A stretch of 64,000 bases of DNA, from positions 377,890,001 through 377,954,000 of the forward strand of contig OZ024741.1 in the NCBI GenBank assembly GCA_964016885.1. Reading direction: 5' to 3'. The notes under the pieces were generated by a model. That model worked only from the letters and a program-made list of their open reading frames with translations, had not been told where the DNA came from and made no database searches. Below, in pieces: positions 1-64,000 of the stretch. Numbering within the stretch: the first letter of the stretch is position 1; each line of letters begins with the position of its first letter. This DNA is from Eledone cirrhosa. Its lineage: Eukaryota. The translations under genes and the position numbers were made by a program.

Positions 1-123
1 CACTTCTGCACCAAACAGCTGAAAGCCTTCCTCACAAATTAACACCTCACACCGACACCACCATTGTAAATGTTACTACGTTTGCCAACACAAAAAAAAT
101 ATAAGCAGTAGCAATATTTTAAC

Positions 124-1503
124 TTGTCTCAGGCAGACATTCATTTCCCGCCATTACCAATGACTGCAGGTGTTAAAGCCTCCACCACCACCACCACCGC
201 GATAACCACCACCCCCACCACCACCGCGACAACAGAAACAAAAGAAGAAAAAAATAAATTAACTCGTGATGTCGAAATGAAATCAAGCAGAATGGACTCT
301 TCCGCACCAAAGACGACTGACGTCACCACCACCACCACAACTGAAACTAACATTAATATTAACACAAATAACGATAGCAACAACAACAACAATGACATTA
401 TAAAACCGACCCTCAGTTTCGCCATAGTAGCAAAACAGTTCGAATCATTCACGGTAACTCAGGAGGATTTAGAAAATGCCAAACAAATGGTAAAGAAAGA
501 TGGGTACAGGGTCAGCCTCAGCGCCCCCCCCCCACCTAATAAAATGGAGCATCGGCGCCTATACACCGTGTCGTATAGAAAAATAAATGTAAAATCGCGC
601 ATAGTGGAACGGGAATCCGAGTCCCAAATCCAAAAAGCTTTGGGACATGTGTGGGCAAGAAAAACCCACATCAGACGTGGGCAAAAGTATGGAACCGTGG
701 ATGTGTTCTTTGAAACACCAGAGGAGGCTAGAGAACACTCCATGGCCCCATTAAAAAGTGACGACTTCACACTCGTCCCAAGCTATTGTGGCCAGAGACT
801 CGTAAAGATCAGGGTGACCCACGTTCCACCGGCCATCGAAATTCCCTGGCTAATAGCGGTTGTCCTCGCCGGCATCGGAGCCAACACGAAAATAATAGAA
901 ATAGCAAAAGAAAAGCAGGAAAACTGGTCCGGATCTGGGATGGAGCTCCTGATCCAAGCGGACCAAAAAAGCATTGAGGAGATCCCAGAGGTAATAGACC
1001 TCACTGACGGCATCCACCTTACGGTAATTGTCGAGAGCAGAAGACCTAGGTGTGTCGTTTGTGGTGAAGGAACCCACCTAAGGGCTTTCTGCCCTCAGGC
1101 TAAAAGGTTGAGGCCACCTCTCCTACCCACCCCAGTGACACAACCATCAACACCACCAGTAGCAGAGATGGCAGCAACAAATGTAGCCACAACAACAGAA
1201 GCAACTATAACAGCAACAACCCCAGCAACAGTAGAAAAACCAACACCACCACCACCACCAGCAAAACCAACACCACCACCACCCAACGCTTCAGAACTAG
1301 CACCAGCGCCTACACCATCCACCACGCCACAACCAAAACTAACGCCTGTGGAGGATTTTCCACTCCCCGGCCTATCACAACTGGAGACATATTGTGACGA
1401 CGAGGAGTGGGAAACGATATCCGGAAAGAAAAAAAAGAAACCAAAAAAGAAAAAATTCTCTTCCTTCCCCCTTCAAAAACAAAATACAGAGGGAAACAAA
1501 TAA
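124..1503 (+). CDS. ORF1 (gag-like nucleic-acid-binding protein), main part
   Basis: CX2CX4HX4C knuckle CVVCGEGTHLRAFC, T/N- and P/T-rich regions, basic tract. By comparison with the copy 2 ATG (5895), the true start lies just before base 1; 124 is a TTG. Confidence 0.8.
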   Translation: MSQADIHFPPLPMTAGVKASTTTTTAITTTPTTTATTETKEEKNKLTRDVEMKSSRMDSSAPKTTDVTTTTTTETNININTNNDSNNNNNDIIKPTLSFAIVAKQFESFTVTQEDLENAKQMVKKDGYRVSLSAPPPPNKMEHRRLYTVSYRKINVKSRIVERESESQIQKALGHVWARKTHIRRGQKYGTVDVFFETPEEAREHSMAPLKSDDFTLVPSYCGQRLVKIRVTHVPPAIEIPWLIAVVLAGIGANTKIIEIAKEKQENWSGSGMELLIQADQKSIEEIPEVIDLTDGIHLTVIVESRRPRCVVCGEGTHLRAFCPQAKRLRPPLLPTPVTQPSTPPVAEMAATNVATTTEATITATTPATVEKPTPPPPPAKPTPPPPNASELAPAPTPSTTPQPKLTPVEDFPLPGLSQLETYCDDEEWETISGKKKKKPKKKKFSSFPLQKQNTEGNK

Positions 1504-1966
1504 ACTAAGAAACAAAAAAGTTAGGACAGATATGCCACCATCCACACTAGCATCACCAACCCCATCAACCCAAACACCAACACCATCACCTACACCACAA
1601 AAGTCACCAAAATGCGAAACAGAAACAAAACCACAACAAACGCAAACAAAACAAAACAACCAAAACGATACACACTACACAGCATCAAATTTGAACAACA
1701 AGCAATTATTTCACTACATCCAACACAACACCAGCATCACAGAAAAAGACTACACAACAACCCCCAAATTCACAACACCTCCACACATACAAATCACTCG
1801 CATCACACAGAAAACGTACATGACACTAAAAAAACAATTCCCCAAAGACATCGGAGACTTCCGACAAGCACTCTGCAGGAGGATTTTTAAGGACATCCTT
1901 CCTGAGGAGGCCACAAGCAGTGAAAAGGAAGAAAAAACCGTCCTTCCCCTACGAGAAGTAAGGTAA
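1440..1966 (+). CDS. C-terminal segment of ORF1, in the +1 frame
   Basis: HYTASNLNNKQLFHYIQHNTSITEK..IGDFRQALCRRIFKDIL matches KYTAINIAKKELIKYIKQHTDITEK..VGDFRGTVTKSIYTDIL of family B (13722-14020). Confidence 0.7.
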
Positions 1967-2000
1967 GTGGTCTTTCCCATCTTTTCCACTCCTTTTCAAC

Positions 2001-5000
2001 ATGACCTCACTCAGAATAGGCAGCATAAATGCGCGTGGTTTGGGGTCGTCATGGAAGCAGGGCCACCTGCTCAACGACCTCAGGTCACTAAACATAGATG
2101 TAGTGGACATCAGCGAGACAAGAATCTCCGAAGCACAGGCTTTTGCACCGATCTTCGGCGGCTACGATGTGTACGCATCTCCCAGCCGTCCAGGATCGGG
2201 GGGAGGAGTTGCTGTGCTTTTTCGGAGCGGTTTGGATCTTGCCATACGGGCCATGTTCCTGGACCCAGAAGGTAAGTTGGTGGTGCTGGACATGACCAGC
2301 GGAGACGGGCAAGCTTTCAGGTTAGTGGCCGTCTATGCCCCGACAGGAGCAGGGCGGCCTGATTTCTTCCGGCGTCTGGAGAAATTTCTTGGAACGTCCC
2401 GCTCTTTAGTGTTAGTGGGCGACTGGAACGGGATCTTAGATGCACGCTGGGATTGTGTGGGATTAGTGGATAGGGAAGGAGGGTGGAAGAGTCTCACCAA
2501 CCTGCTCAGACGTTTTGAACTGTCTGACAGGTACCGAATGGATTTCCCGAATGTACCAATGTGGACTTGGACAAATCGCATAGGGTCATCCAGATCATAT
2601 CTAGATAGAGTATGTTGTAGGGAAATAGATAGGTCTAGCATAGGCTGTCCACAATTCAAGATAGTCAGTTACACGGACCACAAATTCGTGATCTGTGTGC
2701 TTGAATTAGATAGGCTTCATAGACGAGGACCCGGCTACTGGAAGCTATACGCGTCCTTACCAGCGCGCAAGGCCTACAGAGACCGGATTAGCGAACTAGT
2801 TAAGCGGGCGTTGACAGGGGCCATCGTCAACAACAAGTGGTGGTTTGCTCTGAAACGAGCAATTAGAATAGAGTCCATTAGGTTTAGTAAGACTTTAGCA
2901 ATAGAGAAAAATAGAGCAGAGGGAGAATTAGCTAGAAAATTAGATGGGGCGCTTAGCAAAGGCATCGCGACCGACGTACTTGCGGCGAAATTGGCCCTTG
3001 ACCAATTCTTCAATGCAAAGCACGAAGGCTGCGTTGTCACAGCTAGGGTGCGTGCTCTCAGACACGAGGGAACGAAAGCCGTTCAATGGGCCCGAGTGGC
3101 GGAGGCGCGTCGTGGCAACAAAGCCACGATCCGGTCTTTGGTGGACCACAACGGGCGCATGCTACTCGATCCCGAGCAAATGTGTGAAGAGTTTCAGCGA
3201 CACTTCGCTCAACTGTTCGGGGGCAGTGGCGGGCCGGATCGAGGGATGGATTTTAGTGTCTACCTCGACGGACTGCCGCGGCTTTCGGCCACTGAGGCGG
3301 AGTGTTGCGAAAAGCCGATAACAACCGCTGAAGTACGGGATGCAATGACTAGTTGCACAAGGGGTAAATCGCCTGGTTTGGATGGTCTGCCCTATGAACT
3401 TTACTTACAAATGCCAAACTTGTTCGGAGGCCTCTTGGCGGACGTCTACTGCAACTGAGAACAGAACGGGAGAATTCCCAGCTCTGTGAGCCGAGGAGCG
3501 GTGGCGCTGCTGAGAAAGGATCCGAACAAGGGGGATAACATAGATAATTTTAGGCCCATAACTCTGCTAAACACAGAGTTCAAGATTTTGGCCAAGGTGC
3601 TAGCAAAGAGGTTGGCGCTTGTCGTTGGTGGTCTGGTGGGAGAGGCACAGATATGCGCCATTCCCGACAGATCAATCCACCACAACCTCCACCTCATGCG
3701 ATACATCGTAGAGAGGGTAGCTAGGGAACCTGGCACGGGTGGGTCTTTGATCAATTTAGATCAGTCGAAAGCCTTCGATAGGTTCGACCATCGGTACCTA
3801 GCGGCAGTCCTGAGGGCGGCTGGCTTTGGGCCCGTCTTCAGAGGCTGGATCGCTGCCATGCACAGCGACATCTGCTCTGTAGTGAGAGTGAACGGTCACC
3901 TTTCGGAACAGTTCAACATCATGCGCTCGGTCCGCCAAGGATGTCCCCTCTCGTCCCTATTGTACGTATTGACTCTCGAGCAATTACTACACAAACTGGA
4001 GACGTTGAGGGGGGTCCTGCGCGAACTAGGATGCGGAAGATCCGTGTCAGCATATGCCGACGATGTCACCGTAGTGGTGTCGAACGCCGAACACATCGAG
4101 GCGATCGGCACTACACTAAGAGAATACGAAGCGGTGACAGGAGCAATGATCAACCAGGAAAAGTCAGTGGACCTGCAGCTCGGCACCTGGAGAGGCAGGT
4201 CCATTCCGTCCAACAGCGTCGTCGGACGCTGGACGGACGGACCGGTTAAATTGCTAGGGTCTGGTTCGGTCCAGACCTCCAGACGGACAAAAACTGGGAC
4301 GAGGTGACGAGCAGGGTGGCTTCTCTCACCCAGAAATGGGCCGAGAGGAAGCTATCCCTGAAAGGTCGAGCGGAGGTGGCGAATGCGTACATCGCATCCG
4401 TCATCTACTACCGCCTGACCGTCGTACCTTGTCCTAAGCCCCGCCTGACTGCGCTGGAGCGTCTGCTCTTTCTTCTTGTGGAAGGGACGCGCTCCAATGG
4501 TCAGGCGGTCCATCTGCTGTCAACAACTACTACGTGGAGGGCTGGGCATGCCGTGGTTGATGATGCGCAGACACGCGCTCAGGCTACGACATCTCCACCT
4601 CTTCCTCGACGGTGATCAGGTGTGGTCGCCGTTTGCTAGACACGTTTTTCCCCAGCTCGTCTCCTTGACGGAGCTGCAGTCCTGGGTCAAGCGAAGACCG
4701 AAAGGGAGCGCTTGGAGACTGGAATGTCTTCAGGCGTTCACAGCCCTCGACCAATCGGGCAATGTGATCGGTGGAAACTCCACCTTGGCGTTCTATAGGG
4801 GATTAGTGGAAGGGAAGAGCGACGACGTACTTGGAGAAACTCTAGGCGTCGACGAAAATCAACTAGCCATCTTTCGGAAGGACTTTCGGGCCGGGGCCTA
4901 TGGACAACTTCCAGAAATCCCTGGCCTGGCAGTGCTACCGAGGAGCCTTGCCAGTTCGGGATAAACTCTACAGGCATGGAGGTGCCGTCAGCCGGGCATG

Positions 5001-5414
5001 TCCGAGATGCGCGCAGGGCGACGAAACCGTCCTGCACGCACTTGTCCAGTGTCCGAGCATTGCTGACTTGTGGGTTTATGTCGAACACCTGCTGTCACGT
5101 GTAGGACGGATCCAGCTATCAGCTGAGTCCATCGTGAGGATTGCCCCGCCCCCTTCCTTTAGCCTGGAAGGCAGGCAGTTTTTATCTGTCTGGTGGCCAT
5201 GGCGAAAGAGATAGTATGTTGGACACGTTTGAAAGGGCTGAAGACGAGCACTTACCTCTTCGGTGATGCCCTGATTAACTTTTTCAAATTTCATTTGAAA
5301 GGGAAAATCAGGGTAGAGAGGGAAGTGCTCTCTTCCCAGCATTTTGTTGAAAGATGGGTGAGAGAAGCAAGTTTGGCCCGAATGAATGGGCCTTCTCTGA
5401 GTATGTGTCTGTAA
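2001..5414 (+). pseudogene. ORF2 (APE endonuclease-reverse transcriptase), disrupted
   Basis: SINARG, SET, VYAP, GDWN, LDR, TDH (APE); GPGYWK; FRPITLLN, DQSKAFDR, RQGCPLS, YADD (RT); CPRC..ETVLHALVQC. Stop at 3456-3458 and frameshifts near 4258, 4470, 4868 and 5170. Confidence 0.92.
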
Positions 5415-5658
5415 ATTAAAGGTGGAAAACTGGGAGAGGGCACTTGCCCTGGTGGTCAGGGCCACTGTGGTCTTTTAATGGGCTTTCTCCACAAATGTCC
5501 CTTGGAAGTCTCCCCCCTATTGGGGAATTTTTCTTTGTTATTTTATTTCAACCTCTGTTTTTTTTACACGCAGAAATGCCCATTTGTACCGTCCTGTATT
5601 GTCATGTACTGTCCTTAATGTCTGCTTTATGTGAACCCTTGTGGTTAATAAAGAAAAC

Positions 5659-5685
5659 ATTATTATTATTATTATTATTATTATT
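5659..5685 (+). repeat. (ATT)9 tract joining copy 1 and copy 2
   Basis: Read directly from the sequence. Confidence 0.95.
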
Positions 5686-5894
5686 GGCGACCTACGTAGG
5701 AAATCGTATTATCGTGAGCTCCGCAAAGGTTTGTTATTTCCGTTTGTTTAAAAATTGCCATTTATGGAAAATTTTATTGTAAACTGTTTATAAGCACACA
5801 TACATTGTTTTCCGAAAAGGACACCCAAAAAGATTGGGGCCTTGTGCCCAAAATTTTAACTTTTATTATTATCCAAAAATTTCTTTGAAAAAAA

Positions 5895-7885
5895 ATGGCT
5901 AATTCCCCTCTGCACGAAGCAGCTGAAAGCCTTCCTCACAAAATAACACCTCACACCGACACCACCATTGTAAATGTTACTACGTTTGCCAACACAAAAA
6001 AAAATATAAGCAGTAGCAATATTTTAAATTTGTCTCAGGCAGACATTCATTTCCCGCCATTACCAATGACTGCAGGTGTTAAACCCTCCACCACCACCAC
6101 CACCGCGACAACCACCACCACCACCACCACCGCGACAACAGAAACAAAAGAAGAAAAAAATAAAGTAACTCGTGACGTCGAAATGAAATCAAGCAAAATG
6201 GACTCTTCCCCACCGAAGACGACTGACGTCAGCACCACCACAACTGAAAATAAAATTAATATTAACGCTAGCAACAACAACAACAATGACATTATAAAAC
6301 CGACCCTCAGTTTCGCCATCGTAGCAAAACAATTCGAAGCGTTCACGGTAACTCAAGAAGATTTAGAAAATGCCAAACAAATGGTAAAGAAAGATGGGTA
6401 CAGGGTCAGCCTCACCCCCCCCCCCCCCCACCTAATAAAATGGAGCATCGGCGCCTATGCACCGTGTCGTATAGAACAATAAATGTAAAATCGCGCCGAG
6501 TGGAACGTGCATGCGAGTCCCAAATCCAAAAAGCTTTGGGACATGTGTGGGCAAGAAAAACCCACATCAGACGTGGGCAAAAGTATGGAACCGTGGATGT
6601 GTTCTTTGAAACACCAGAGGAGGCTAGAGAACACTCCATGGCCCCATTAAAAAGTGACAACTTCACACTCGTCCCAAGCTATTGTGGCCAGAGACTCGTA
6701 AAGATCAGGGTGACCCACGTTCCACCGGCCATCGAAATTCCCTGGCTAATAGCGGCTGTCATCGCCGGCATCGAGGCCAACACGAAAATAATAACAATAG
6801 CAAAAGAAAAGCAGGAAAACTGGTCCGGATCTGGGATGGAGCTCCTGATCCAAGCGGACCAAAAAAGCATTGAGGAGATCCCAGAGGTAATAGACCTCAC
6901 TGACGGCAGCCACCTCACGGTAATTGTCGAGGGCAGAAGACCTAGGTGTGTCGTTTGTGGTGAAGGAACCCACCTAAGGGCTTTCTGCCCTCAGGCTAAA
7001 AGGTTGAGGCCACCTATCCTACCCACCCCAGTGACACAACCATCAACACCACCAGTAGCAGAGATGCCAGCAACAACTGTAGCAGCAACGACAGAAGCAA
7101 CTATAACAGCAACAACCCCAGCAACAGTAGCAAAACCAACACCACTACCACCACCAGCAAAACCAACACCACCACCACCCAACGCTTCAGAACTAGCACC
7201 AGCGCCTACACCATCCACCACACCACAACCAAAACTAACGGCTGTGGAGGATTTTCAACTCCCCGGCCTATCACAACTGGAGACAAATTGTGACGACGAG
7301 GAGTGGGAAACGATATCCGGAAAAAAAAAGAAACCAAAAAAGAAAAAATTCTCTTCCTTCCCCCTCCAAAAACAAAATACAGAGGGAAACAAATAAACTA
7401 AGAAACAAAAAAGTTAGGACAGATAAGCCACCATCCACACCAGCATCACCAACCCATCAACCCAAACACCAACACCATCACCATCATTATCCCCAGCACC
7501 ACCATCACCTACACCACAAAAGTCACCAAAATGCGAAACAGAAACAAACCCACAAATAACGCAAACAAAACAAAACAACCAAAACGATATACACTACACA
7601 GCATTAAATTTGAACAACAAGCAATTATTACACTACATCCAACACAACACCAGCATCACAGAAAAAAACTACACAACAACCCCAAAATTCACACCACCTC
7701 CACACATACAAATCACTCGCATCACACAGAAAACGTACATGACACTAAAACAAAAATTCCCCAAAGACATCGGAGGCTTCCGACAAGCACTCTCCAGGAG
7801 GATTTATAAGGACATCCTTCCTGAGGAGGCCACAAGCAGTGAAAAGGATGGAAAAGCCGTCCTTCCCCTACGAGAAGTAAGGTAA
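5895..7885 (+). pseudogene. ORF1 of copy 2, frameshifted
   Basis: ORFs 5895-6482, 6440-7396, 7290-7559 and 7610-7885 are successive pieces; shifts at the poly-C run (~6414-6429), the A-rich tract (~7320-7345) and ~7455. Confidence 0.85.
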
Positions 7886-7919
7886 GTGGTCTTTCCCATC
7901 TTTTCCACTCCTTTTCAAC

Positions 7920-10900
7920 ATGACCTCACTCAGAATAGGCAGCATAAATGCGCGTGGCTTGGGGTCGTCATGGAAGCAGGGCCACCTGCTCAACGACCTC
8001 AGGTCACTAAATATAGATGTAGTGGCCATCAGCGAGACCAGAATCTCCGAAGCACAGGCTTTCGCACCGATCTTCGGCGGCTACGATGTGTACGCATCTC
8101 CCAGCCGTCCGGGATCGGGGGGGAGGAGTTGCTGTGCTTTTTCGGAGCGGTTTGGATCTTGCCCTACGGGCCATGTTCCTGGACCCAGAAGGTAAGTTGG
8201 TGGTGCTGGACGTGACCAGCGGAAACGGGCAAGCTTTCAGGTTAGTGGCCGTCTATGCCCCGACAGGAGCAGGGCGGCCTGATTTCTTCCGGCGTCTGGA
8301 GAAATTTCTTGGAACGTCCCGCTCTTTAGTGTTAGTGGGCGACTGGAACGGGATCTTAGATGCACGCTGGGATTGTGTGGGATTAGTGAATAGGGAAGGA
8401 GGGTGCAAGAGTCTCACCAACCTGCTCAGACGTTTTGAACTGTCTGACAGGTACCGAATGGATTTCCCGAATGTACCAATGTGGACTTGGACAAATCGCA
8501 TAGGGTCATCCAGATCATATCTAGATAGAGTATGTTGTAGGGAAATAGATAGGTCTAGCATAGGCTGTCCACAATTCAAGATAGTCAGCTACACGGACCA
8601 CAAATTCGTGATCTGTGTGCTTGACTTAGAGAGGCTTCATAGACGAGGACCCGGCTACTGGAAGTTAAACGCGTCCTTACCAGCGCGCAAGGCCTACAGA
8701 GACCGGATTAGCGAACTAGTTAAGCGGGCGTTGACGGGGGCCATCGTCAACAACAAGTGGTGGTTTGCTCTGAAAAGAGCAATTAGAATAGAGTCCATTA
8801 GGTTTAGTAAGACTTTAGCAATAGAGAAAAATAGAGCAGAGGGAGAATTAGTTAGAAAATTAGATGAGGCGCTTTGCAAAGGCATCGCGACCGACGTAGC
8901 GAACTAGTTAAGCGGGCGTTGAAGGTGGCCATCGTCAACAACAAGTGGTGGTTTGCTCTGAAAAGAGCAATTAGTATAGAGTCCATTAGGTTTAGTAAGG
9001 CTTTAGCAATAGAGAAAAATAGAGCAGAGAGAGAATTAGTTAGAAAATTAGACGAGGCGCCTAGCAAAGGCCGACGTACTTGCGGCGAAATTGGCCCTTG
9101 ACCAATTATTCAATGCAAAGCACGAAGGCTGCGTTGTCAGAGCTAGGTTGCGTGCTCTCATACACGAGGGGACGAAAGCCGTTCAATGGGCCCGAGTGGC
9201 GGAGGCGCGTATTGGCAACAAAGCCACGATCCGGTCTTTGGTGGACCACGACGGGCGCATGCTACTCGATCCCGGGAAAATGTGTGAAGCTTTTCAGCGA
9301 CACTTCGCTCAGCTGTTCGGGGGCGGCGGTTGACCGGGTCGATGGATGGACTTTAGTGTCTACCTCGACGGACTTCCGCGGCTCTCGGCCACTGAGGCGC
9401 AGTGTTACGAAAAACAGATAACAGCCGCTGAAGTACGGGAGGCATTGACTGGCTGCACAAGGGGTAAATTGTCTGGTTTGGGATGGTCTGCCCTATGAAC
9501 TTTACGTAAAGATGCCAGACTTGTTCGGGGGCCTCTTGGCGGACGTCTACTGCAACTGGCAACAGAACGGGAGAATTTCCAGCTCTGTGAGCCGAGGAGC
9601 TGTGGCGCTGCTGAGAAAGGATCCGAACAAGGGGGATAACATAGATAGTTTTAGGCTCATAACTCTGCTAAACACAGAGTTCAAGATTTTGGCCAAGGTG
9701 CTAGCAAAGAGTTTGGCGCTTGTCGTTGGTGGTCTGGTGGGAGAGGCGCAGACATGCGCCATTCCCGACAGATCCATCCACGACAACCTCCACCTCATGC
9801 GATACATCGTAGAGATGGTAGCTAGGGAAACTAGCACGGGTTGGTCCTTGATCAATTAATATCAGTTGAAAGCTTTCGATAGGGTCGACCATCGTTACCT
9901 AGCGGCAGTACTGATGGCGGCTAACTTTGGGCCCGTCTTCAGAGGCTGGATCGCTGCCATGCACAGCGACATCTGCTCTGTGGTGAGAGTGAACGGTCAC
10001 CTTTCGGAACCGTTCAACGTCAAGCGCTCGGTCCGCCAAGGATGTCCCCTCTCGTCCCTCTTGTACGTATTGACTCTCGAGACATTACTACATAAACTGG
10101 AGACGTTGAGGGGAGCCCTGCGCGAACTAGGATGCGGAAGATCCGTGTCAGCATATGCCGACGATGTCACCTGTATTGGTGTCGAACGCCAAACACATCG
10201 AGGCGATCGGCACTACACTAAGAGAATACGAAGCGTTGAGAGGAGCAATGAACAACCTGGAAAAGTCAGTGAGCCTGCCGCTCCGCACCTGGAGAGGCAA
10301 GTCTATGCCGTCCAAAAGCGTCGTCAGGTGCTGGACGGACGGACCGATTAAATTGCTAGGGGTCTGGTTCGGTCCAGACCTCCAGACGGACAAAAACTGG
10401 GACGAGGTGACGAGCAGCGTGGCTTCTCTCACCCAGAAATGGGCCGAGAGGAAGCTATCCCTGAAAGATCGAGCGGAGGTGGCTAACTTTACATCGCGTC
10501 CGTCATCTACTACCGCCTGACCGTCGTACATTGTCCTAAGCCCCGCCTGACAGCGCTGGAGCGTTTGCTCTTTCGCTTTTTGTGGAAGAGACGCGCTCCG
10601 ATGGTCAGGCGGTCCGTCTGCTGTCAACACCCGCTACGTGGAGGGCTGGGCATGCCGTGGCTGATGATGCGCAGACACGCACTCAGGCTACGACATCTCC
10701 ACCTCTTTCTCGATGGTGATCACGTGTGGTCGCCGTTTGCTAGACACGTCTTTCCCCTGCTCGTCTCCTTGACGGAGCTGCAGTCCTGGGTCAAGCGAAG
10801 ACCGAGAGGGAGCGCTTACAGACTGGAATGTTTTCAGGCGCTCACAGCCCTCGACCAATCGGGCAATGTGATCGATGGAAGCTCCACCTTGGCATTATAT

Positions 10901-11524
10901 AGAGGATTAGTGGAGGGGAAGAGCGACGACGTACTTGGGGAAAATCTAGACGTCGACGAAAATCAACTAGCCAATCTCTTCCGAAGGACTTTCGGGCCGG
11001 GGCCTATGGACAACTTCCAGAAATCCCTGGACTGGCAGTGCTACCGGGGAGCTTTGCCAGTTCGGGATAAACTCTACAGGAATGGAGGTGCCGTCAGCCG
11101 AGCATGTCCGAGATGCGCGCAGGGCGACGAAACTGTCCTGCACGCACTCGTCCAGTGTCCGAGCATTGTTGACTTGTGGGTTTATGTCGAACACCTGCTG
11201 TCACGTGTAGGACGGATCCAGCTATCAGCTGAGACCATCGTGAGGATTGCCCCGCCCTCTTCCTTTAGCCGGGAAGGGCAGGCAGTTTTTATCTGTCTGG
11301 TGGCCATGGCGAAAGAGATAGTATGGTGGACACGTTTGAAAGGGCTGAAGACGAGCACTTACCTCTTCGGTGATGCCCTAATTAACTTTTTCTAATTTCA
11401 TTTGAAAAGTAAAATCAGGGTAGAGAGGGAAGTGCTCTCTTCCCAGCATTTTGTTGAAAGATGGGTGAGAGAAGCAAGTATGGCCCGAGTATGTGTCTGT
11501 ATGGCTCTGAGTATGTGTCTGTAA
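7920..11524 (+). pseudogene. ORF2 of copy 2, disrupted, with an internal ~188-bp duplication
   Basis: Same APE/RT/Zn motifs as copy 1; multiple stops and frameshifts. Confidence 0.9.
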
Positions 11525-11768
11525 ATTAAAGGTGGAAAACTGGGAGAGGGCACTTGCCCTGGTGGTCAGGGTCACTGTGGTCTTTTAATGGGCTTTCTCC
11601 ACAAATCTCCCTCGGAAGTCTCCCCCCTATTTGCGAAACTTTCTTTGTTATTTTATTACATCCTTTGTTTTTTTTTACACGCAGAAATGCCCATTTGTAC
11701 CGTCCTGTATTGTCTTGTACTGTCCATAATGTCTACTTTATGTAAACCCTTGTTGTTAATAAAGAAAA

Positions 11769-11769
<1 letters not shown>

Positions 11770-11802
<33 letters not shown>
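11770..11802 (+). repeat. (ATT)11 tract joining copy 2 and the family B element
   Basis: Read directly from the sequence. Confidence 0.95.
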
Positions 11803-12014
11803 GGTTGGTGAAGCCACGCTTCTTATCACCTCCAGTCTTTTTCAACGTTTTACCTCTTTTTCAACCGTTCTAAACCTTTTATTCAAGTTTTAAATTTGAT
11901 AAAAGTTTAGAAGTGACCCACCTAATACAGAGGTTCACTAGTAAATAATACGGCTCCCCTTTACTGGGTGTCGTATTCGTATTTGTGTAAAAATATTTTT
12001 TGAAAAATTTCAAC

Positions 12015-14020
12015 ATGGAGAACACAAAAAATAGAGAGGGAGACTTTATCAGATAACACAGAGAGAGGGAGACTTTAACAGCATGTCAACAAGACAGCGT
12101 TCCAGCGAATGTAAATATAAACGAAAATATTACAAAGGAAAAAAAGATTGTTACAGATTTAAAATTAACAAATATTTCTAACACAAACAACACCAACAAT
12201 AACACCAACAACATCACCAACAACAACACCAAAAATAACAGCGGTAAATCGAGAACGACAATAACAAAAATAACAGCGGTAAGGTCGAGAAAGACAATAA
12301 CAATGACAATAACAACAGCCACAACAACAATAATAGTAGGAACAGTATCAAAAAAACAACAACAATAACAACAGCCACAATAACAGTAACAGCAGCAACA
12401 GTATCAACGAAAACAACACCAACAACTGTACCAGCGAAAAGAACAACAATGACACCGATACCTGTATTAGCGACCTCAGCACCACCAGTAAGATCAGTAG
12501 CGGCAGCAATAGTGGTGCTGCTGAAAAAGGGACCACTTCTTTTGCAGGTGTCGCGCGAAATATCGAGACAGTGTTAGTCACAGAGGAGGAGATGGCAGTC
12601 GCAAGGGCCATTGTGACAAGAAGCGCAAATAGTGTTTCCCTGAAACCTCCACCCGATTTTTTCATGGACCAGCAGCTACGAACGGTGACTTACCGCACCG
12701 TAAGGAAAATCTCACATCGAGTGGAGAGAGCCACGGAGGCTCAAATCCAAAAGGCATTGGGGTGCGTCTGGGCACGCAAAACCCACATCAACCGAGGCAG
12801 AAAGTACGCCACAGTAGAAGTACTTTTCGCCACCCCCCAGGTAGCAAAGTCTCACTCTTTGGAAACCCTAAAGAGTGATGAGTTAGTCTTGGTGCCCTCC
12901 TACTGCGGGCAGAAAATTGTGAGGGTCAAAGTGACCCAGGTCCCACCTGACGTGCCCATGCCTTGGCTGGCTGCGTCTGTCCTTGCTGGAATTGAGAACA
13001 GGGCGACGATGCTGCAAGTAGAAAAAATAGGGAGAGAGAACTGGTCAGGTATAGGCATGCAAATGCTTATACAAACTGACCAGAAATGTATGGAGGCTAT
13101 CCCCGATATCATAGAATTTGAGGAAGGACTCCAACTCCCTATAAGTTAGAAGGAAGACGGCCAAAATGTTATCTCTGTGGGTCGAAAGGTCACCTCAGGG
13201 CCTTTTGCCCGCAGAAGACACCGAAGAGGGCCCCTCTCCTTCCAATACCTGGGCCGCTGCTACCGAGAGAAGGAGAGGCAACAAACGAAGAAGCCCCTTC
13301 CACGGTGGGGAGGAGGGCATCATCCGTAGCACCCGTACCAAGGCCACGGATAACTAAAGCAGCATCATCAGTAGCGGCAACACCAATAGCTACATTTGAA
13401 ATAGCTACACCAGCAACAACATTGCCGAAGAGGGCTCCACTACCACCACCAACAGCCGTGGAGCACATACCCCTCCAAGACACCACAGAATCCGACATGG
13501 TGTTTGAGGCGGGAGTGACGTGGCAAACAGTCTGCCACAAAAAAGAAAAAAGAAAAAAACCCTTAGATTCTCCCTCCAAAAGCGAAGGCATTCAAAGAGG
13601 GGTAAAGGCAGCAAGGAAACTTGCAGCAACACCACCTCAAACACCAACAACGCAAACACAAGACACAACACCATACAGCAACAAGAAGAAAACGGCAACA
13701 ACATGACCCGTCCCCTCAAAAAAGTACACAGCCATAAACATAGCAAAAAAAGAACTCATAAAATATATAAAGCAGCACACAGACATCACGGAAAAAATTA
13801 CTACACCCCACCAACACCAAGAACTCTCCCGACAAACATAAGCATCATCGAAATCTCAATAGAACAATACAAATCTTTCAAACAAAAAATCCCCAACGCA
13901 GTTGGCGACTTCAGAGGGACGGTTACCAAGAGCATATACACTGACATCCTCTTGGAAACACCCATGACCAGCGAAAGGGACGGTTCTACTGTCCCTTCAC
14001 CACACGAACAAGGTAAGTGA
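12015..14020 (+). pseudogene. ORF1 of the family B element
   Basis: ATG at 12015, N/T-rich N-terminus, core at 12571-13149, knuckle CYLCGSKGHLRAFC at ~13167-13208; stops and frameshifts present. Confidence 0.8.
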
Positions 14021-14052
14021 CCCTTTCTCATTTGCGCCGTTTCTCATCCAAC

Positions 14053-17000
14053 ATGGCTGTACTCAGAATAGACAGTATAAATGCACGTGGCCTGGGGTCA
14101 TCTTGGAAGCAGGGTCACCTGCTCAATGACCTCAGGTCACTAAACATAGATGTGTTGGCCATCAGTGAAACCAGAATCTCCGAGGCACGGGACTTCGCGC
14201 CGATCTTCGGCGGCTACGATGTATACGCATCTCCCAGCCGTCCAGGATCGGGGGGAGGAGTTGCCGTCCTTTTTCGGAGAGGCTTGGATCTCGCGATACG
14301 GGCCATCTTCCTGGACCCAGAAGGTAAGTCGGTGGTGCTGGACGTAACCGGCAGCGAAGGCCATGCATTCAGGCTAGTAGCCGTCTACGCCCCAACAGAG
14401 GCAGCACGGCCAGATTTCTTCAGACGTCTAGAGACCTTTCTTGGAACGTCCCGCTCTTATGTGTTAGTGGGCGACTGGAACGTTATCTTGGATGCACGCT
14501 GGGATCGTGTGGGGCTAGTGGATAGGGGAGGAGGGTGTAAGAACCTCACCAAACTGCTCAGACGTTTTGAACTGTCTGACAGGTATCGACTGGATCACCC
14601 GAATGTGCCAATATGGACATGGACAAACCGCATCGGGTCATCCGGATCGTATCTAGATAGGGTATTCTACAGGGAACTAGATAAGGCTAGTATAACTTGT
14701 CCACAATTTAAAATAGTCGACTACACAGACGACACATTTGTGATGTGTGAGATCGACATAGACAGACTTCATAGACAAGAGACTGGTTACTGGAAGCTGA
14801 ACGCGTCTTTCCCGGCTCACAAGGCCTGCAGGGACCGGATTAGCGTATTAGTTAAGCGGGCGTTGACGGGAGCGGTCGTCAACAACAGGTGGTGATTCGC
14901 CCTGAAAAGGGCAATTAAAGTAGAGTCGATTAGGTTTAGCAAAAGAGTAGTGATAGAGGAAAATAGAGTAGAGGGAGAGCTAGTCAGAAAGCTAGAAGAG
15001 GCGTTTAGGACAGGCATCGCAACTGACGTGCTTGCGGCGAGATTGGTACTCGACCAATTCTTCAACGCAAAACACGAAGGCTGCGTTGTCAGAGCTAGAG
15101 CGCGTGCTCTGAAACACGGGGAGACAAAAGCCGTCCAATGGGCCAGGGTTGCAGAGGCTCGACGTGGCAATAAAGCGACAATTCGGTTTTTGTCTGAACA
15201 AAACGGGTGCGTGATGCTCGAACCCGAGCGGAGTGTGAAGCTTTTCAGCAGCACTTTGCTGAACTGTTCTGGAAAGGCGGCGGCCCGGATCGGGGCATGG
15301 ACTTCAGTGCATACCTCAAAGGACTGCCTCTGCTCTCGACGACCGCAGCACAGTGTTGCGAAAAGCCAATAATAGCCGGTGAAATACGGGAAGCGATGGC
15401 TAACTGCACAAGAGGTAAATCGCCAGATTTAGATGGTCTGGCCTACGAGCTTTATGCATTTATGCCAGACTTGTTCGGTGTCCTCTTGGCAGACGTCTAC
15501 TGCAACTGGCAGCAGAACGGGAGCATTCCCAGTTTTGTGAGCCGGGAAGCAGTGGCGCTGCTGAGAAAAGACCCGAACAAGGGGGATGTTATTGATAATT
15601 TCATGCCCATAACTCTGCTAAACGCAGAGTTCAAGATTTTGTCCAAGGTGTTAGCAACGAGGTTGGCGCTTGTCATCAGGGGTCTGGAGGCAGAGGCGCA
15701 GACATGCGCCATCCCGAACAGATCCATACACGACAACCTCCACCTCATGCGATACATCATAGAGAGGGTGGTTAATGAACCTGGCAAGGGAGGGGCCCTG
15801 ATCAACTTGGATCAATCCAAAGCATTCGATATGGTCGACCATCGGTACCTGGCGGCGGTCCTCGAGGTAGCCGGTTTCGGGCACCTTTTCAGGCGTTGGA
15901 TCGCAGCAATGTACAACGACATCTGCTCAGTTGTCACGGTGAACGGTCACCTGTCGCAGCAGTCATCAATCGCTTAGTCTGTTCAGCATCATGCGCTCAG
16001 TCCGCCAGGGTTGTCCCCTCTCGTCCTTCTTGTACGTATTGGCTCTCGAGCCGTTACTGCACAAACTGGGGGCGATGAGGGGCGTCCCACGCGAACTAGG
16101 ATGCGGGAAATCCGAGTTGGCTTACGCTGACGATGTCACCAGACACGTCCAGATGCTCGGCACCGCTCTCAAGGAATATGAAGCGGTGACAGGAGCGAAG
16201 ATAAACCAGGAAAAGTCCATACCGTCCGACAGCGTCGTGGTGCGTTGGACGGCCGGACCGGTTAAATTGCTCGGGGTCTGGTTCGGACCGGACCTCCAGA
16301 TGGAGAAAAACTGGAACGAGGTGACGAGCAGGGTGGCCTCCCTCACCCAGAAATGGCCTGAGAGGAAGCTGTTCCTGAAAGGCCGGGCCGAAGTGGCGAA
16401 TGCGTACATCGCATCCGTCATCTGCTACCGCCTCACCGTCGTCCCTTGCTCCAGCCCAACTCACACCGAAATGGAGCGCCTCCCCTTCCGCTTTTTGTTG
16501 AAGGGACGCGCTCTCATGGCCAGACGATCCATCTGCTGTCAACACCCGTTGCGTGGAGGACTGGTCATGCCATGGCTGATGATGCGCAAACATGCGCTGA
16601 GGCTGCGACATCTCTGGTGCTTACTTGATGGTGAACGGGTGTGGTCGCCGTTCGCCAGGCACATTTTTCCACAGCTCGTCTCCTTGACGGAGCTGCAGTC
16701 CTGGGTCAGAAAAAGACCGAGGGATAGCGCTTGGAAACTGGAATGTCTCCAGGCGCTCACTGCCCTCTCCGAGTTGGGTACCAGTATCGGTGGAACATCC
16801 ACCTCGGCGTTCTATAGAGGACTAGTGGATGGGAAGAGCGACGACGTTCTCGGAGAGATCCTTGTTATCGAAGAAGATCAGCTGTTTGCTCTTTTCCGGA
16901 GAACTTTCAGCCCGTGGCCTATGGATAACTTCCAAAACTCCCTGGCCTGGCAGTGCTACCGGGGAGCGTTGCCGGTTCGAGATAAGCTTTACAGGCACGG

Positions 17001-17435
17001 AGGTGCCGTCAGCCGAGCCTGTCTGAGATGCGCGCATAGCGACGAAACCGTTGTGCACGTACTCGTTCAGTGCCCGAGCATTGCTGACTTGTGGAGCTAT
17101 GTCGAAAGGTGCTGTTACGTGTGGGACTGATCCGGTTGTCGACTGAGTCCATTGTGCAGAGGGTCTCGCTGTCTTCCTTTTAGGGGGAAGGGCAGGCGGT
17201 TTTCATCTGCCTGGTAGCCATGGCGAAAGAGATTGTGTGGTGGACAAGATTAAAAGGATTAAAGACAAACACTTTCCTCTTCGGCGAAGCCCTAATTAAC
17301 TTTTTCAAGTTTCACTTGAAGAGGAAAATCAGGGTGGAGAGGCAAGTGCTGCTTTCTCGCAAGTTTGTTGTAAGGTGGGTGAATGTAGCGAGAATGGTCC
17401 GAGTGAACGGTACCACTCTGAATATACGTCTGTAG
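14053..17435 (+). pseudogene. ORF2 of the family B element
   Basis: MAVLRIDSINARG, GDWN, DQSKAFD, RQGCPLS, YADD, CLRC..ETVVHVLVQC; disrupted. Confidence 0.9.
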
Positions 17436-17726
17436 TTAGAGAGATGGAAAAATTGAGAGAGGGCGCTTTCTCTGGTAGTCAGGGTGACCGTGGTCTTTTG
17501 TGTGGTTTTCCCCTCGAGTAACCCTCGGAGGTTTCCCCCCTATTGGGACATTTTTCATTGTTTCAATTTTCATTTTTATTGTTTATATATATATATGTTT
17601 TATGTCTTTTTTTCTTTTCTTATATAAATAATAAAAATATTTACACGCACAAAACCCACATCGTACCGTCCTGTTCCGCCTGTGAAGTTTTTCTTGATGT
17701 CAGCCCTTGTGGCCAATAAAGAAATC

Positions 17727-17753
17727 ATTATTATTATTATTCTTATTATTATT
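17727..17753. repeat. imperfect (ATT)n/(AAT)n tract shared by the Tx1 (+) and R4/Dong-like (-) 3' ends
   Basis: Read directly from the sequence. Confidence 0.85.
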
Positions 17754-18262
17754 CTTTGAGTCTCAGTCATTGATGTTAGTTAACTGGAAAGTTTGTTGAA
17801 ATGAATATCAAGCCACTACCTGCAGCCTCAGATATTCAGGACGTATAGGAGGGTTCTTGCTGTTCCCAGCAAGCATACCTTTTGAAGCGTTCCAAAAAGC
17901 CTGAAGGGGCCAATTTTATTTAACCATCCCTGGAAACTTTTTGAGATAGTCCCTAGTGCGCTTATGACAATCGGGATCACTTTGACTTCATGGCAGTTCC
18001 AAATCCTTTTTACCTCCCACTTAAAGTCCTGGTATCGGTTAATTTTCTCCCTCTCCTTCTCTTGCACTCTCGTGTCGAATGGGCAGGCCACATCCACAAT
18101 CAGGCACCATCTTTTTTCTTTGTCCACAACCACCAGGTCAGGTCTATTGTGTTCCAGTTTCTTGTCCATCTGTATCCTAAAATCCGACAGCAGCTTCACC
18201 TGATCGTTTTCTATCACCGACTCTGGCTTATGCTCACACCACTTCTCAGAATGTGGTAAATT
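17754..18262 (-). mobile_element. 3' fragment of an R4/Dong-like non-LTR element (restriction-like endonuclease domain)
   Basis: W.EHKPESVIEN..RPDLVVVDK..IVDVACPFD..EKINRYQD (PD..D RLE motif), short 3' UTR, (AAT)n tail. Confidence 0.82.
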
Positions 18263-18311
18263 CTTCTTCTTCTTCTTCTTCTTCTTCTTCTTCTTCTTCT
18301 TCTTCTTCTTT
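18261..18311 (-). repeat. (GAA)n tract, probably the tail of the adjacent RTE fragment
   Basis: (TTC)n on the + strand; explains the poly-K in ORF 17828..18370. Confidence 0.85.
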
Positions 18312-22454: not shown

Positions 22455-24540
22455 AATATTGTTTACTTGGAGTCTTAGCCATTGATGTTATTTAATTGGA
22501 AAGTTTGTTCAAATGTACATAAAGCTGCTACTTGCAGCCTCCGTTATTCAGGACGTATCGGAAGGTTTTTGCTATTTACAGAAAGCATGCCTTTTGAAGT
22601 GTTCCTAAAAGGGGGGCTGGACTAATATTCTTTAGCCACACTTAAAAACGCTTCGAGATAGTACCTACTGCTCCTATCACAATCGGGAAGATCTTGACTC
22701 ATGTCAGTCCCGAATCATTTTTAATTCCCACTTTAAATCCTGGTATGGGTTAATTCACTCCTCTTTTTGTTGCACTCGTGTGTCAAAGGGGAAGGCTACA
22801 TCTACTTTCAGGCATGATCTTTTCTCTTATCAAAAACCACCAGGTCAGGCCTATTGTCTTCTAATGTTTTGTCTGTCTCCATACTGAAATCCCATAGCAC
22901 CTTCACTCCATTATGTTCTCCCACCACTTCTCAGAATGTGGTAAATTATTTAATTTGCATAAATGCCTGTGAATCACCTTTCCTTTTATATCATGCCTCC
23001 ATCCTTTATAGTGAGTCTGGGATAGGTGCTTACACTCGGATACGATGTGAGCCACAGTTTCTTTACTAACTCCACAGATCCTAGAGAGTGGACTAGCATA
23101 CTCCTTCGATCAGAAGGCTTGCTCCTGTGCATCCAGGAGGATTCGCCTTGTAGCTTTAAGATCTCTTTTTAACCAGCTCCATGACAGTCGATCTTTGAAT
23201 TCCGTTTTCACAAAAAGGGGCTATGAAGATAATTTTTCATGAAGGTTGCTATTCATCTTTGCTGTTACTTTCTTCTTTGTCATCCCCTGTTCTATTGTCT
23301 ACCCCTCAGTACGACATGTTTGTGAGGACAGCTCCTATTCATTTGAACACAGTCCTCAAAGCTGATATTACCTCTTCCTCTTTCAGATCTCTTTTACTAG
23401 AGTCTATCAACATACTCCTTTTTATCCATTTCACTTTTTTTCCAGTAACGTCCCATTTGATAATTTCCGGACAACACCAAACAGCATGCATAGCTCGGTA
23501 AGCGACTACACTCATGACATTCCTACTATTTAGATGTAATTCTATCATGTTCCTTACTCTCCTTATGTATGCAGATCTTTTCAAATCCTTCTTGTTATTG
23601 TTCTTGATGTCATCTGCCTTCAGAACACACACATACCTGTCTCCCTCTTCAGTGTCTATCTCATTTATCATCTCGACCGTTGGTACCTCGATTTTGTTGC
23701 TTTTTTCCATTTACCTCACCTCATCACTCGGACTCCACGGTTATTAATACCAAATTCTGTACATATATTATTGTTGAAAATACGGACAGTGTTAACAAGT
23801 ACATGGAACTCTCCGCTTTTCCCAAATAGTCTTAGATCGTCCATGACGGGGAGGTGGTTGATGGGAGGGCTTTTCTCTTCCCAGCTTGTATCTTGCTTTC
23901 AATTTTCGCAATATTTGTCACAAGGATATGAGAGAAAGGACAAACAATAAAAGGGACAATCTATCTTATTGGAAGATACCTCCCTTGATTTTCACTCCTC
24001 CCAAGGATTCTCAACCTTATGTTAGCTCTGTCTAGCAGGTCTTGTTACTAAAAAATAAGGAACCATGTTGAATGCCTTCTTTTAGTCTATCCATCCCATG
24101 GTATGAGCAGTTTTCCTCTTCTTGCAGTTCCTTAATACCATCCTTTCAGTAAATAACTATTTTTTGGACCCCCGGACTTCTTCCGGCATAATTCATGTCC
24201 GTCTGATAATAAGTTGTTGATGTTGAGGGGATAGTAGACTTATTTAGACTAATTGATTATGGAGGACAGACATGTGATAGGCCAATATTTGGTAAAATAA
24301 TTACCCTTGATTCGGTCTTTCATTACCAGAATTGTGGTACACCAAGCAGTCATTTAACATGGCTGAGAGTTTTGGGTGGAGGGACGGTATATTTTTTCCA
24401 ATATATTGCACACTATCTGGGCATGGTGATCTCCAGTTGGTTAGTGTATTGGCCGTGATACTCAATTTCAAGTTGTTGTTGTGCTCATTCACTAATTACC
24501 TTTTTAACTACCTCAATCCACAACAACTCCAACAAGACCA
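22455..24540 (-). mobile_element. decayed R4/Dong-like element (RT + RLE), 5'-truncated
   Basis: 22465-22947 is homologous to 17754-18262. Minus-strand RT remnants: NWRSPCPD, IKGGIFQ*DRLS, INHLPVMDDLRLFG. Confidence 0.8.
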
Positions 24541-27368: not shown

Positions 27369-27375
27369 GTAAATT

Positions 27376-27383
27376 AGTAATTA

Positions 27384-27478
<95 letters not shown>

Positions 27479-27575
27479 ATAGTAGTAGCAGTAGTAGTAG
27501 TAGTAGTAGTAGTAGCAGTAGTAGTAGTAGTAGTAGTAATGGTAGTAGTAGTAGTAATATTTGGAGTAGTAGTAG
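27376..27575 (+). repeat. (AGT)n/(AGC)n microsatellite
   Basis: Read directly from the sequence. Confidence 0.95.
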
Positions 27576-27635
27576 TTATGTTTGGTGTTTGTGTTCTCTT
27601 TACATTCTTATTATAATTAGTATTATGAGCGTTGA

Positions 27636-60487: not shown

Positions 60488-60525
<38 letters not shown>
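60488..60525 (+). repeat. (TTA)n tract upstream of Tx1 copy 4
   Basis: Read directly; no element 3' end precedes it. Confidence 0.95.
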
Positions 60526-63500: not shown

Positions 63501-64000
63501 ACAACAAGTGGTGGTTTGCTCTGAAAAGAGCAATTAGAATAGAGTCCATTAGGTTTAGTGAGGCTTTAGCAATAGAGAAAAATAGAGCAGAAGGAGAATT
63601 AGTTAGAAATTTTGACGAGGCGCTTAGCAAAGGCATCGCGACCGACGTGCTTGCGGCGAAATTAGCCATTGACCAATTATTCAATGCAAAGCACGAATGC
63701 TGCGTTGTCAGAGCTAGGGTGCGTGCTCTCAGACACGAGGGGACGAAAGCCATTCAATGGGCCAGAGTGGCGGAGGCGCATCGTGGCACCAAAACCAGGA
63801 TCCGGTCTTTGGTGGACCACGACGGGCGCATGCTACTCGATCCCGGGCAAATGTGTGAAGCTTTTCAGCGACACTTCGCTCAATTGTTCGGGGGCAGCGG
63901 CGGGCCGGATCGAGGGTTGGACTTTAGTGTCTACCTCGACGGACTGCCGAGGCTCTCGGCCACTGAGGTGGAGTGTTGCGAAAAGCCGATAACAGCCGCT
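60526..64000 (+). mobile_element. Tx1-like family A copy 4 (runs off the window)
   Basis: Same 5' end GGCGACCTACGTAG; disrupted ORF1 at 60745-62642; ORF2 from ~62677 with ATG mutated to ACA. Confidence 0.92.

Follow-up and report, generated by a model that had tools for sequence, protein, structure and literature searches.

The window analysed here, a 64-kb stretch of the 3.0-Gb genome of the octopod Eledone cirrhosa (OZ024741.1:377,890,001-377,954,000), begins with three co-oriented retrotransposons without long terminal repeats (non-LTR; A1, A2 and B1), which stand head to tail on the + strand from position 1 to 17753 and have (ATT)9 and (ATT)11 alone as joints. We propose, with a probability of roughly 0.8, that these are decayed Tx1-like elements and that they were likely placed by an ATT-directed, target-primed insertion which leaves ATT on both sides of the new copy, so that copies accumulate side by side. 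Indeed, all the 71 full-length 5' ends sampled elsewhere in the genome abut an ATT-repeat tract (39 in family A, 19 in family B and 13 in a third family, C).

The ATT tracts of the window were located by Tandem Repeats Finder and direct reading, and the elements of the array, about 6 kb each, were delimited by self-BLAST of the window. The features, with their open reading frames (ORFs), are as follows.

1 to 5658, + strand: body of A1, family A (1-5685 with its tract); ORF1 open at 160-1503, ORF2 region at about 2001-5411
5634 to 5652, + strand: conserved 3' motif of A1, AACC-CTTGT-GGTT (possible 4-bp hairpin with loop CUUGU), then AATAAA 6 nt before the ATT tract
5659 to 5685, + strand: (ATT)9, junction A1/A2
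5686 to 11769, + strand: body of A2, family A (5686-11802 with its tract, 6117 bp), starting GGCGACCTACG
11770 to 11802, + strand: (ATT)11, junction A2/B1
11803 to 17726, + strand: body of B1, family B (element 11803-17753, 5951 bp), starting GGTTGGTGAAGCC
17727 to 17756, both strands: interrupted tract (ATT)5 CTT (ATT)3, serving as 3' tract of B1 (+) and as (AAT)n tail of a Dong-like fragment (-)
60490 to 60525, + strand: (ATT)12 before copy 4, the DNA upstream of it not being one of these elements
60526 to 64000, + strand: copy 4, A-like, cut by the end of the window, 86-90% identical to A2

This layout bears out what an initial annotation had read from the letters of the window, namely three co-oriented elements of about 6 kb from two families, separated only by 9 to 11 ATT units, and a fourth copy at 60526 which follows an ATT tract with no element upstream. 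G+C content is 46-53% within the elements and about 30-38% outside them, and all four perfect ATT tracts of at least five units in the window touch a Tx1-like element. Because these four of four tracts are joined by the 71 of 71 sampled 5' ends elsewhere, the association of tract and element is not due to chance. All four copies of the window are decayed. The ORF2 of A1 keeps one frame with 9 stop codons, that of A2 (about 7920-11491) has several frame changes and 5 stops, that of B1 (about 14053-17432) is in four frame pieces with 3 stops, and both ORFs of copy 4 are broken by frame changes and stops. A2 also carries an internal 188-bp tandem duplication (8709-9071). A1 has 104 private substitutions and A2 has 165, whereas 20 other full-length A copies have 13-66. 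An RNA-editing or special mutation signature, considered for A1 in view of its 9 in-frame stops without frame change, was rejected since these private substitutions represent ordinary decay biased from GC to AT.

The true 5' end of A1, GGCGACC, lies 218 nt upstream of the window start (L001:9783, in the 10 kb preceding the window) and is itself preceded by (ATT)19 and then by DNA that matches neither family A nor family B; the array thus consists of exactly three members and starts in a plain ATT tract. A2 is 93-95% identical to A1 by self-BLAST. B1 matches A2 at 77-84% identity only in ORF2, starting near position 2150, and its 5' third is unrelated. This composition bears on whether unequal crossing-over or tandem duplication could have produced such a row from a single element and its tract. 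The initial annotation considered that the family B member excludes simple tandem duplication, and at the window array this stands: the third member comes from another family with a different 5' third, A1 and A2 differ too much (only 93-95% identity, with the private substitutions given above), and the tracts have 19, 9 and 11 units. Genome-wide, moreover, 19 of 39 A copies have neither a long nor a short interspersed element (LINE or SINE) upstream. Some neighbours at other loci would fit duplication as well as insertion: at L071, one and the same AGT-interrupted tract flanks the copy on either side; L097 and L098, which are 99.4% identical, each have (ATT)6 and begin with the variant head GGAGACC; and the units at L041 have an identical 6057-bp period with 8 mismatches in 3535 nt. 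We regard duplication as an improbable origin of the window array; it may add to arrays at other loci.

An assembly artefact, in which repeats were misjoined at simple sequence, would be conceivable since the junctions are simple repeats, which assemblers handle badly. We judge it very improbable: the three members differ by 5-25%, and like junctions occur at dozens of other loci on several contigs. The sequences flanking the A2-B1 junction are highly repeated in the sequencing runs searched.

Flank tables were established for the best-scoring, youngest copies (40 of 2181 candidates for family A, 40 of 622 and 13 of 13), with the window's own copies excluded; the 13 candidates of the family C 5' search are not a copy number, as very common words were probably skipped. 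In family A, 39 of 39 copies show 6-19 perfect ATT units directly before GGCGACC. An ATT tract precedes 19 of 19 family B copies (perfect over at least 4 units in 14, interrupted in 5) and 13 of 13 family C copies, three of which belong to one array. Full-length copies without (ATT)n on their 5' side, a pattern which the initial annotation had set against its own proposal, are thus absent from this sample, and the proposal itself, of an ATT-specific lineage whose insertions regenerate the target and build arrays, is supported by these flanks and by the mixed arrays described below. The phase of the 5' junction is also fixed: it reads ATT/G (slash at the junction) in 68 of 71 cases, the exceptions being L049 and L050 (..ATTGT/TGTTGG) and L141 (ATT/A), and the sense strand of the elements always carries ATT and never AAT. 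On the 3' side of the 39 A copies, at least two perfect ATT units were found in 36, the first units being interrupted in the other 3. For comparison, a target was defined in PMC4494074, in its available text, as a sequence recurring in more than 20% of flanks; here the repeat is present in 71 of 71 5' flanks and, with at least two perfect units, in 36 of 39 family A 3' flanks.

The nature of the DNA upstream of the tracts allows the role of the repeat to be specified. Within 300 nt upstream of the 39 A copies we found the 3' end of a related LINE in 18 cases, a SINE in 2 and neither in 19; upstream of the 19 B copies, an A element in 3, a SINE-type match in 1 and no element match in 15. If (ATT)n were merely the elements' own 3' tail and insertion sites were unspecific, each ATT tract in front would be the tail of a neighbour, and LINEs with simple-repeat tails but no matching target are indeed known, such as the I element and UnaL2 (PMC3747384, in the part available). 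The 19 of 39 A copies and 15 of 19 B copies with no element upstream, at which ATT tracts are nevertheless present, rule out that explanation, together with target-site duplications that combine ATT with unique sequence. Since A copies with no LINE upstream all follow ATT, the tract is a target and not merely a neighbour's tail, as the initial annotation had argued from copy 4.

Truncated copies lead to the same point. The 39 copies gathered by the A 3' end comprise 23 full-length copies, 2 with the 5' half of another family, 4 internally deleted or complex ones and 10 truncated at the 5' end. Seven of these 10 begin at, or no more than 5 nt from, 2-7 ATT units; because a truncated copy cannot bring its own 5'-terminal repeat, this ATT was in the target. 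Two of the truncated copies show target-site duplications: ATTATTAAGC at L096 and (ATT)n plus ATAAATGTAAG at L093. Around full-length copies, by contrast, no duplicated unique sequence was seen outside the ATT tracts (22 copies, by eye), which means that both cuts fell within the repeat. A 5' ATT carried in by RNA from an upstream tract was considered and rejected, as it predicts, for full-length copies at short sites, duplications of unique sequence outside the 5' tract, and none was seen in these 22 copies; a few AUU units may still be brought in this way. Downstream, 11 of the 39 A copies are followed directly by a Tx1-like 5' end (6 of family A, 4 of family C and 1 of a further family), and mixed arrays are common, with A beside B in the window and A beside C elsewhere.

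From these directly read flanks, duplications and junction phases, we infer a scheme in which the ORF2 endonuclease would nick the antisense strand in (AAT)n, just after 5'-AATAAT. The nicked end would pair with (AUU)n at the 3' end of the element RNA, and cDNA synthesis would be primed at the border between body and tail. The second strand would be cut 6-20 nt downstream, which in a long tract is still inside the repeat, so that one ATT tract would become two and each new copy would offer fresh targets. Such a doubling of the target would account for the mixed head-to-tail arrays, for the common orientation of their members and for the differing tract lengths at the window junctions. The fixed ATT/G phase could be due either to a phase-specific second-strand cut or to a few AUU units at the RNA 5' end, each of which would be sufficient.

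A tRNA-like SINE of about 185 bp (B-box-like GAGTTCAAATCCCGCCG), present in many flanks (L106, L109, L110, L114, L122, L127 and others), gives access to insertion sites shorter than the tracts. Over roughly its final 35 nt, it resembles the LINE 3' end (GGC-CTTGT-GCC..AAAGTAGAAACA versus GCC-CTTGT-GGC..AATAAAGAAATC), with 92-95% identity to the B1 3' end over 38-39 nt by BLAST. Around the constant CTTGT, the putative stem is AACC/GGTT in families A and C, GCC/GGC in family B, GGC/GCC in the SINE and GGCC/GGCC in an old family described below; its letters vary between families in a way that would preserve pairing (read by eye, with no statistical score). Among 26 full-length SINE copies, which are chance encounters in the fetched flanks, duplications of at least 6 nt were detected in 23 and of at least 10 nt in 19, versus 1 of 26 in a shifted control. 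The duplicated targets at short sites start with ATTAT (18 of the 23 duplications) and are 6-20 nt long; in many copies, the ATT 'tail' amounts to no more than the ATT units that the duplication contains. The SINE, with its LINE-like 3' motif, is probably copied by the Tx1-like LINE machinery. If so, the first nick would lie immediately 5' of ATTAT(T) on the sense strand, that is immediately 3' of AATAAT on the antisense strand, and the second cut 6-20 nt downstream. The SINE was also often observed straight after LINE tails.

Alternatively, the endonuclease would be of loose specificity, and the preference would be due chiefly to the (AUU)n RNA tail, which would pair at any nick in AT-rich DNA, as does the poly(A) of L1 at TTTT/AA. 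The duplications at short sites need only ATTAT(T), many SINE 'tails' do not exceed the ATT part of the duplication, as expected if priming needs pairing, and the endonuclease is of the L1/Tx1 apurinic/apyrimidinic (AP) type. The 71 of 71 full-length LINEs, however, lie in tracts of about 5 units or more, whereas a single ATTATT must be far commoner at 33% G+C, and target choice in the known Tx1-clade cases is ascribed mainly to the endonuclease in the accessible part of PMC4494074. Neither argument is decisive, and we consider pairing as the main source of the preference to be rather unlikely.

Several observations weigh against ATT-directed insertion as proposed here, or at least against its generality. 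The flank tables cover a non-random sample of copies. Shared tract lengths or interruptions at some neighbours (L071, L097/L098 and the L041 array) fit duplication as well. Three of the 10 truncated copies (L069, L084 and L095) have no ATT at the 5' junction. Finally, full-length SINEs occupy short ATTAT sites, whereas all the sampled full-length LINEs are in long tracts, and 15 of 26 pattern-matched SINE 3' ends have no (ATT) run of at least 3 units within 420 nt upstream.

The identity of the elements was assessed mainly on family C, of which locus L041 provides copies with an intact ORF1 (P0002, 698 aa) and an intact ORF2 (P0001, 1139 aa); they start GAATGCCATGG. P0001 and the window copies have an N-terminal AP endonuclease (APE), a central reverse transcriptase (RT) and a C-terminal zinc-binding motif, and open pieces of the window copies match Exo_endo_phos, RVT_1 and zf-RVT, all three domains being encoded by B1. 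A Pfam search of the family C ORF1 matched no family; a CCHC-type motif (CFRCGSKTHLRAFC) was spotted in it by eye. The closest proteins to P0001 in a large protein collection are 79% and 69% identical, the latter from Argonauta hians, and are followed by a large set at about 40%. Its best named match of Swiss-Prot type is the Xenopus 'Transposon TX1 149 kDa protein' (YTX2_XENLA, E 4e-92, 328 bits), with which BLASTP aligned 974 residues at 29% identity. Other named matches are a Polyodon 'YTX2' and a Ciona 'pol-like protein'; the latter and fish RT proteins are 26-31% identical to P0001, their families not being stated in the records. Versus solved structures, human L1 ORF2p scored 181 bits and R2 proteins at most 79 bits. 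These comparisons support a place for families A to C in the L1/Tx1 group, in which the best matches favour Tx1; the Tx1 identity given in the initial annotation is thus retained at the level of best matches. An assignment of A1, A2 and B1 to Dong/R4 was rejected, as two ORFs and an AP endonuclease are present.

The elements have fixed ends. The 5' ends are GGCGACC in A, GGTTGGTG in B and GAATGCC in C, and the elements share a fixed 3' end, ...CCTTGTGG..AATAAAGAAA[A/T]C. The initial annotation had both families starting with GG straight after ATT, which is correct for A and B but does not hold as a rule for the lineage: since C begins with GAATGCC, only the initial G is general. One A copy is followed by a further Tx1-like 5' end, starting GGTCTAAGCGG. 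A Tx1-like 5' end that reads GGTCTAAGCGGACGTATTTTGC was noticed after ATT tails in the 3' flanks of L087 and L105, and the corresponding element is probably a fourth family. At L088 (C1:28986345-28993063), (ATT)20 precedes the initial 8 nt of the family C head (GAATGCTA), after which only the element's final 360 nt are present; the two ends were retained through either an internal deletion or a template jump. Genome-wide, the 215-bp 5' end of A2 gave the 2181 first-look candidates of family A, of which the 40 scored were all 100% identical, and an RT piece gave 86,717 candidates, many with open frames of 1195-1204 aa; judging from these sequences, the Tx1-like lineage looks to have been recently active elsewhere in the genome.

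The association with ATT appears in an older family as well, one copy of which lies in the window.

24591 to 27375, + strand: old 5'-truncated Tx1-like copy, with 35-45% amino-acid identity to the family C ORF2

This copy ends with GGCC-CTTGT-GGCC and ATAAATGAAACC; in its tail region, ATTA now precedes (TAG)n (27384-27586), a run of (TAG)64 with CAG patches. ATTATT stands at the 3' end of 18 among 29 other copies of the family, which are 77-84% identical, and a SINE head lies within 80 nt downstream of 7 of the 29. Because the old family has both the 3' motif and ATTATT ends, the ATT association is older than families A to C. A sister lineage targeting (TAG)n was considered and rejected, since 18 of these 29 copies end with ATTATT and only a few are followed by TAG runs. 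ATT tracts that grade into TAG/CAG runs were also seen at L072, L104, L107 and L117, as if the microsatellite unit changed with age.

Several LINEs specific for a microsatellite have been reported in the Tx1 clade: in the available part of Kojima's 2015 paper, PMC4494074, these are Kibi at (TC)n, Koshi at (TTC)n and crocodilian families at (TTCC)n and (TTTC)n. Like them, the ATT elements are AP-endonuclease LINEs of the L1/Tx1 group with one microsatellite on both sides, and, as in Tx1-Mar with SINEU, a SINE partner is proposed. In contrast to these families, they target (ATT)n, a repeat absent from the Tx1 targets given in that part of PMC4494074; their host is a mollusc and not, as in the cases compared, a vertebrate, and the target is common to at least four families whose 5' ends are unrelated, this comparison being one of descriptions. 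Xenopus laevis Tx1L (YTX2_XENLA) has the same ORF2 domain order and also inserts target-specifically, but into the Tx1D DNA transposon (PMC4494074, available part), and the identity is only 29%. The I factor of Drosophila has a (TAA)n 3' tail (PMC3747384, in the part available), and the ATT elements resemble it in having an A/T-rich trinucleotide repeat at the 3' end instead of poly(A); they differ from it in that the ATT repeat also precedes all the sampled copies at their 5' end. The I factor is not known to be specific for (TAA)n as a target. Kibi and Koshi were reportedly presented as microsatellite-specific LINEs by Kojima and Fujiwara in 2004.

Published repeat annotations of Octopus vulgaris include 13 'L1-Tx1' families, recently active, and 5 'Dong-R4' families, with no target mentioned in the available parts of these reports (PMC13282606, PMC8967140), and 'Dong-R4' is described as abundant in this species (PMC13282606, same limit). 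Full-text literature searches found nothing on Tx1-type LINEs directed to ATT or on octopod arrays of such elements; Repbase, Dfam and paper supplements lay outside these searches and may contain such entries. Microsatellite-specific Tx1 families are known, as is (TAA)n for the unrelated Dong; the (ATT)n target of a Tx1-type lineage is likely to be new. If true, (ATT)n would extend the Tx1-clade target list of (TC)n, (TTC)n, (TTCC)n and (TTTC)n, as far as that list is given in the available text, and an octopod SINE of very high abundance would have a likely driver. LINEs with a specific target illustrate how retrotransposons can spread while sparing genes, and their endonucleases are naturally retargeted AP nucleases. 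Long mixed arrays at ATT tracts are real features which are to be expected in the repeat annotation and assembly of cephalopod genomes.

The other side of the last tract of the array is occupied by a LINE of a different kind.

17757 to 18260, - strand: 3' fragment of a Dong-like LINE, 5'-truncated; its last 144 ORF residues are 90% identical to P0123 and are followed by the 3' untranslated region

This fragment is tail to tail with B1, with which it shares the 30-bp ATT/AAT tract, and its opposite end borders on (TTC)16 (18261-18310). P0123, its intact relative, has a single ORF of 1130 aa that matches RVT_1 and, weakly, zf-RVT, but not Exo_endo_phos; by eye, its C-terminus reads RPDLVVVDK..IVDV..EKEREKINRY, a PD..D..EK-like motif. 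Among the 120 matches listed for P0123, there was no named Dong relative and no informative name. Intact relatives are found at L100:1499-4891, L101 and L102, where they have (TAA)n/(AAT)n at both ends and form tandems, and the first-look search gave 40,708 candidates in the genome. Dong elements have a single ORF with a restriction-like endonuclease after the RT and are not known to have an AP endonuclease. Taken together, the predicted protein and the ends of these copies fit a Dong-like (R4) element. Dong itself, of the R4 clade, targets (TAA)n specifically in the snail Biomphalaria as well as in Bombyx and Anopheles (PMC3812793, in the part available). The ATT elements thus use the same trinucleotide repeat as Dong, read on the other strand, but differ from it by their AP endonuclease and their opposite orientation on the repeat.

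Contacts between the two kinds of LINE recur elsewhere: the antisense 3' end of the Dong-like LINE follows the ATT tract in 5 of 39 A copies, and its antisense 5' end precedes several Tx1-like copies. Two unrelated LINE machineries use one repeat on opposite strands, and if the proposed insertion process is true, they compete for and feed a single microsatellite. We would tentatively go further, with a confidence somewhat below even, and suggest that most ATT/AAT microsatellites of this genome might be made and used by retroelements, the Tx1-like LINEs and the SINE on one strand and the Dong-like LINE with a short partner on the other, each insertion doubling the landing pad for both, and that the Tx1-like endonuclease might have a true (AAT)n-specific nicking activity, new for the clade. 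A sequence repeated after ATT tracts, ACAGTTGCATTTATCTTGCTTTATGTTCATACGAG, was noticed at L001:4991, 8297 and 8728, in the 3' flanks of L074, L075 and L091 and at L100:385-424; read from the opposite strand, it forms the 3' terminus of another element, which carries an (AAT)n/(TAA)n tail and is possibly a short partner of the Dong-like LINE.

A few further features of the window and of the flanks were noted. A second, remoter relative of the Dong-like protein (35-58% identity in pieces) was observed at 22546-24507 on the - strand, back to back with the old Tx1-like copy. Rfam at gathering thresholds gave 0 matches over the whole 64 kb. The region 28700-57600 is AT-rich (about 30-35% G+C) and contains many (AT)n, (AC)n and ACAT-type microsatellites. 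Lastly, ATT tracts often form compound microsatellites with adjacent (TTC)n/(CTT)n runs, as seen at L005, L050, L058, L082, L091, L139 and from L102:5106 onward.

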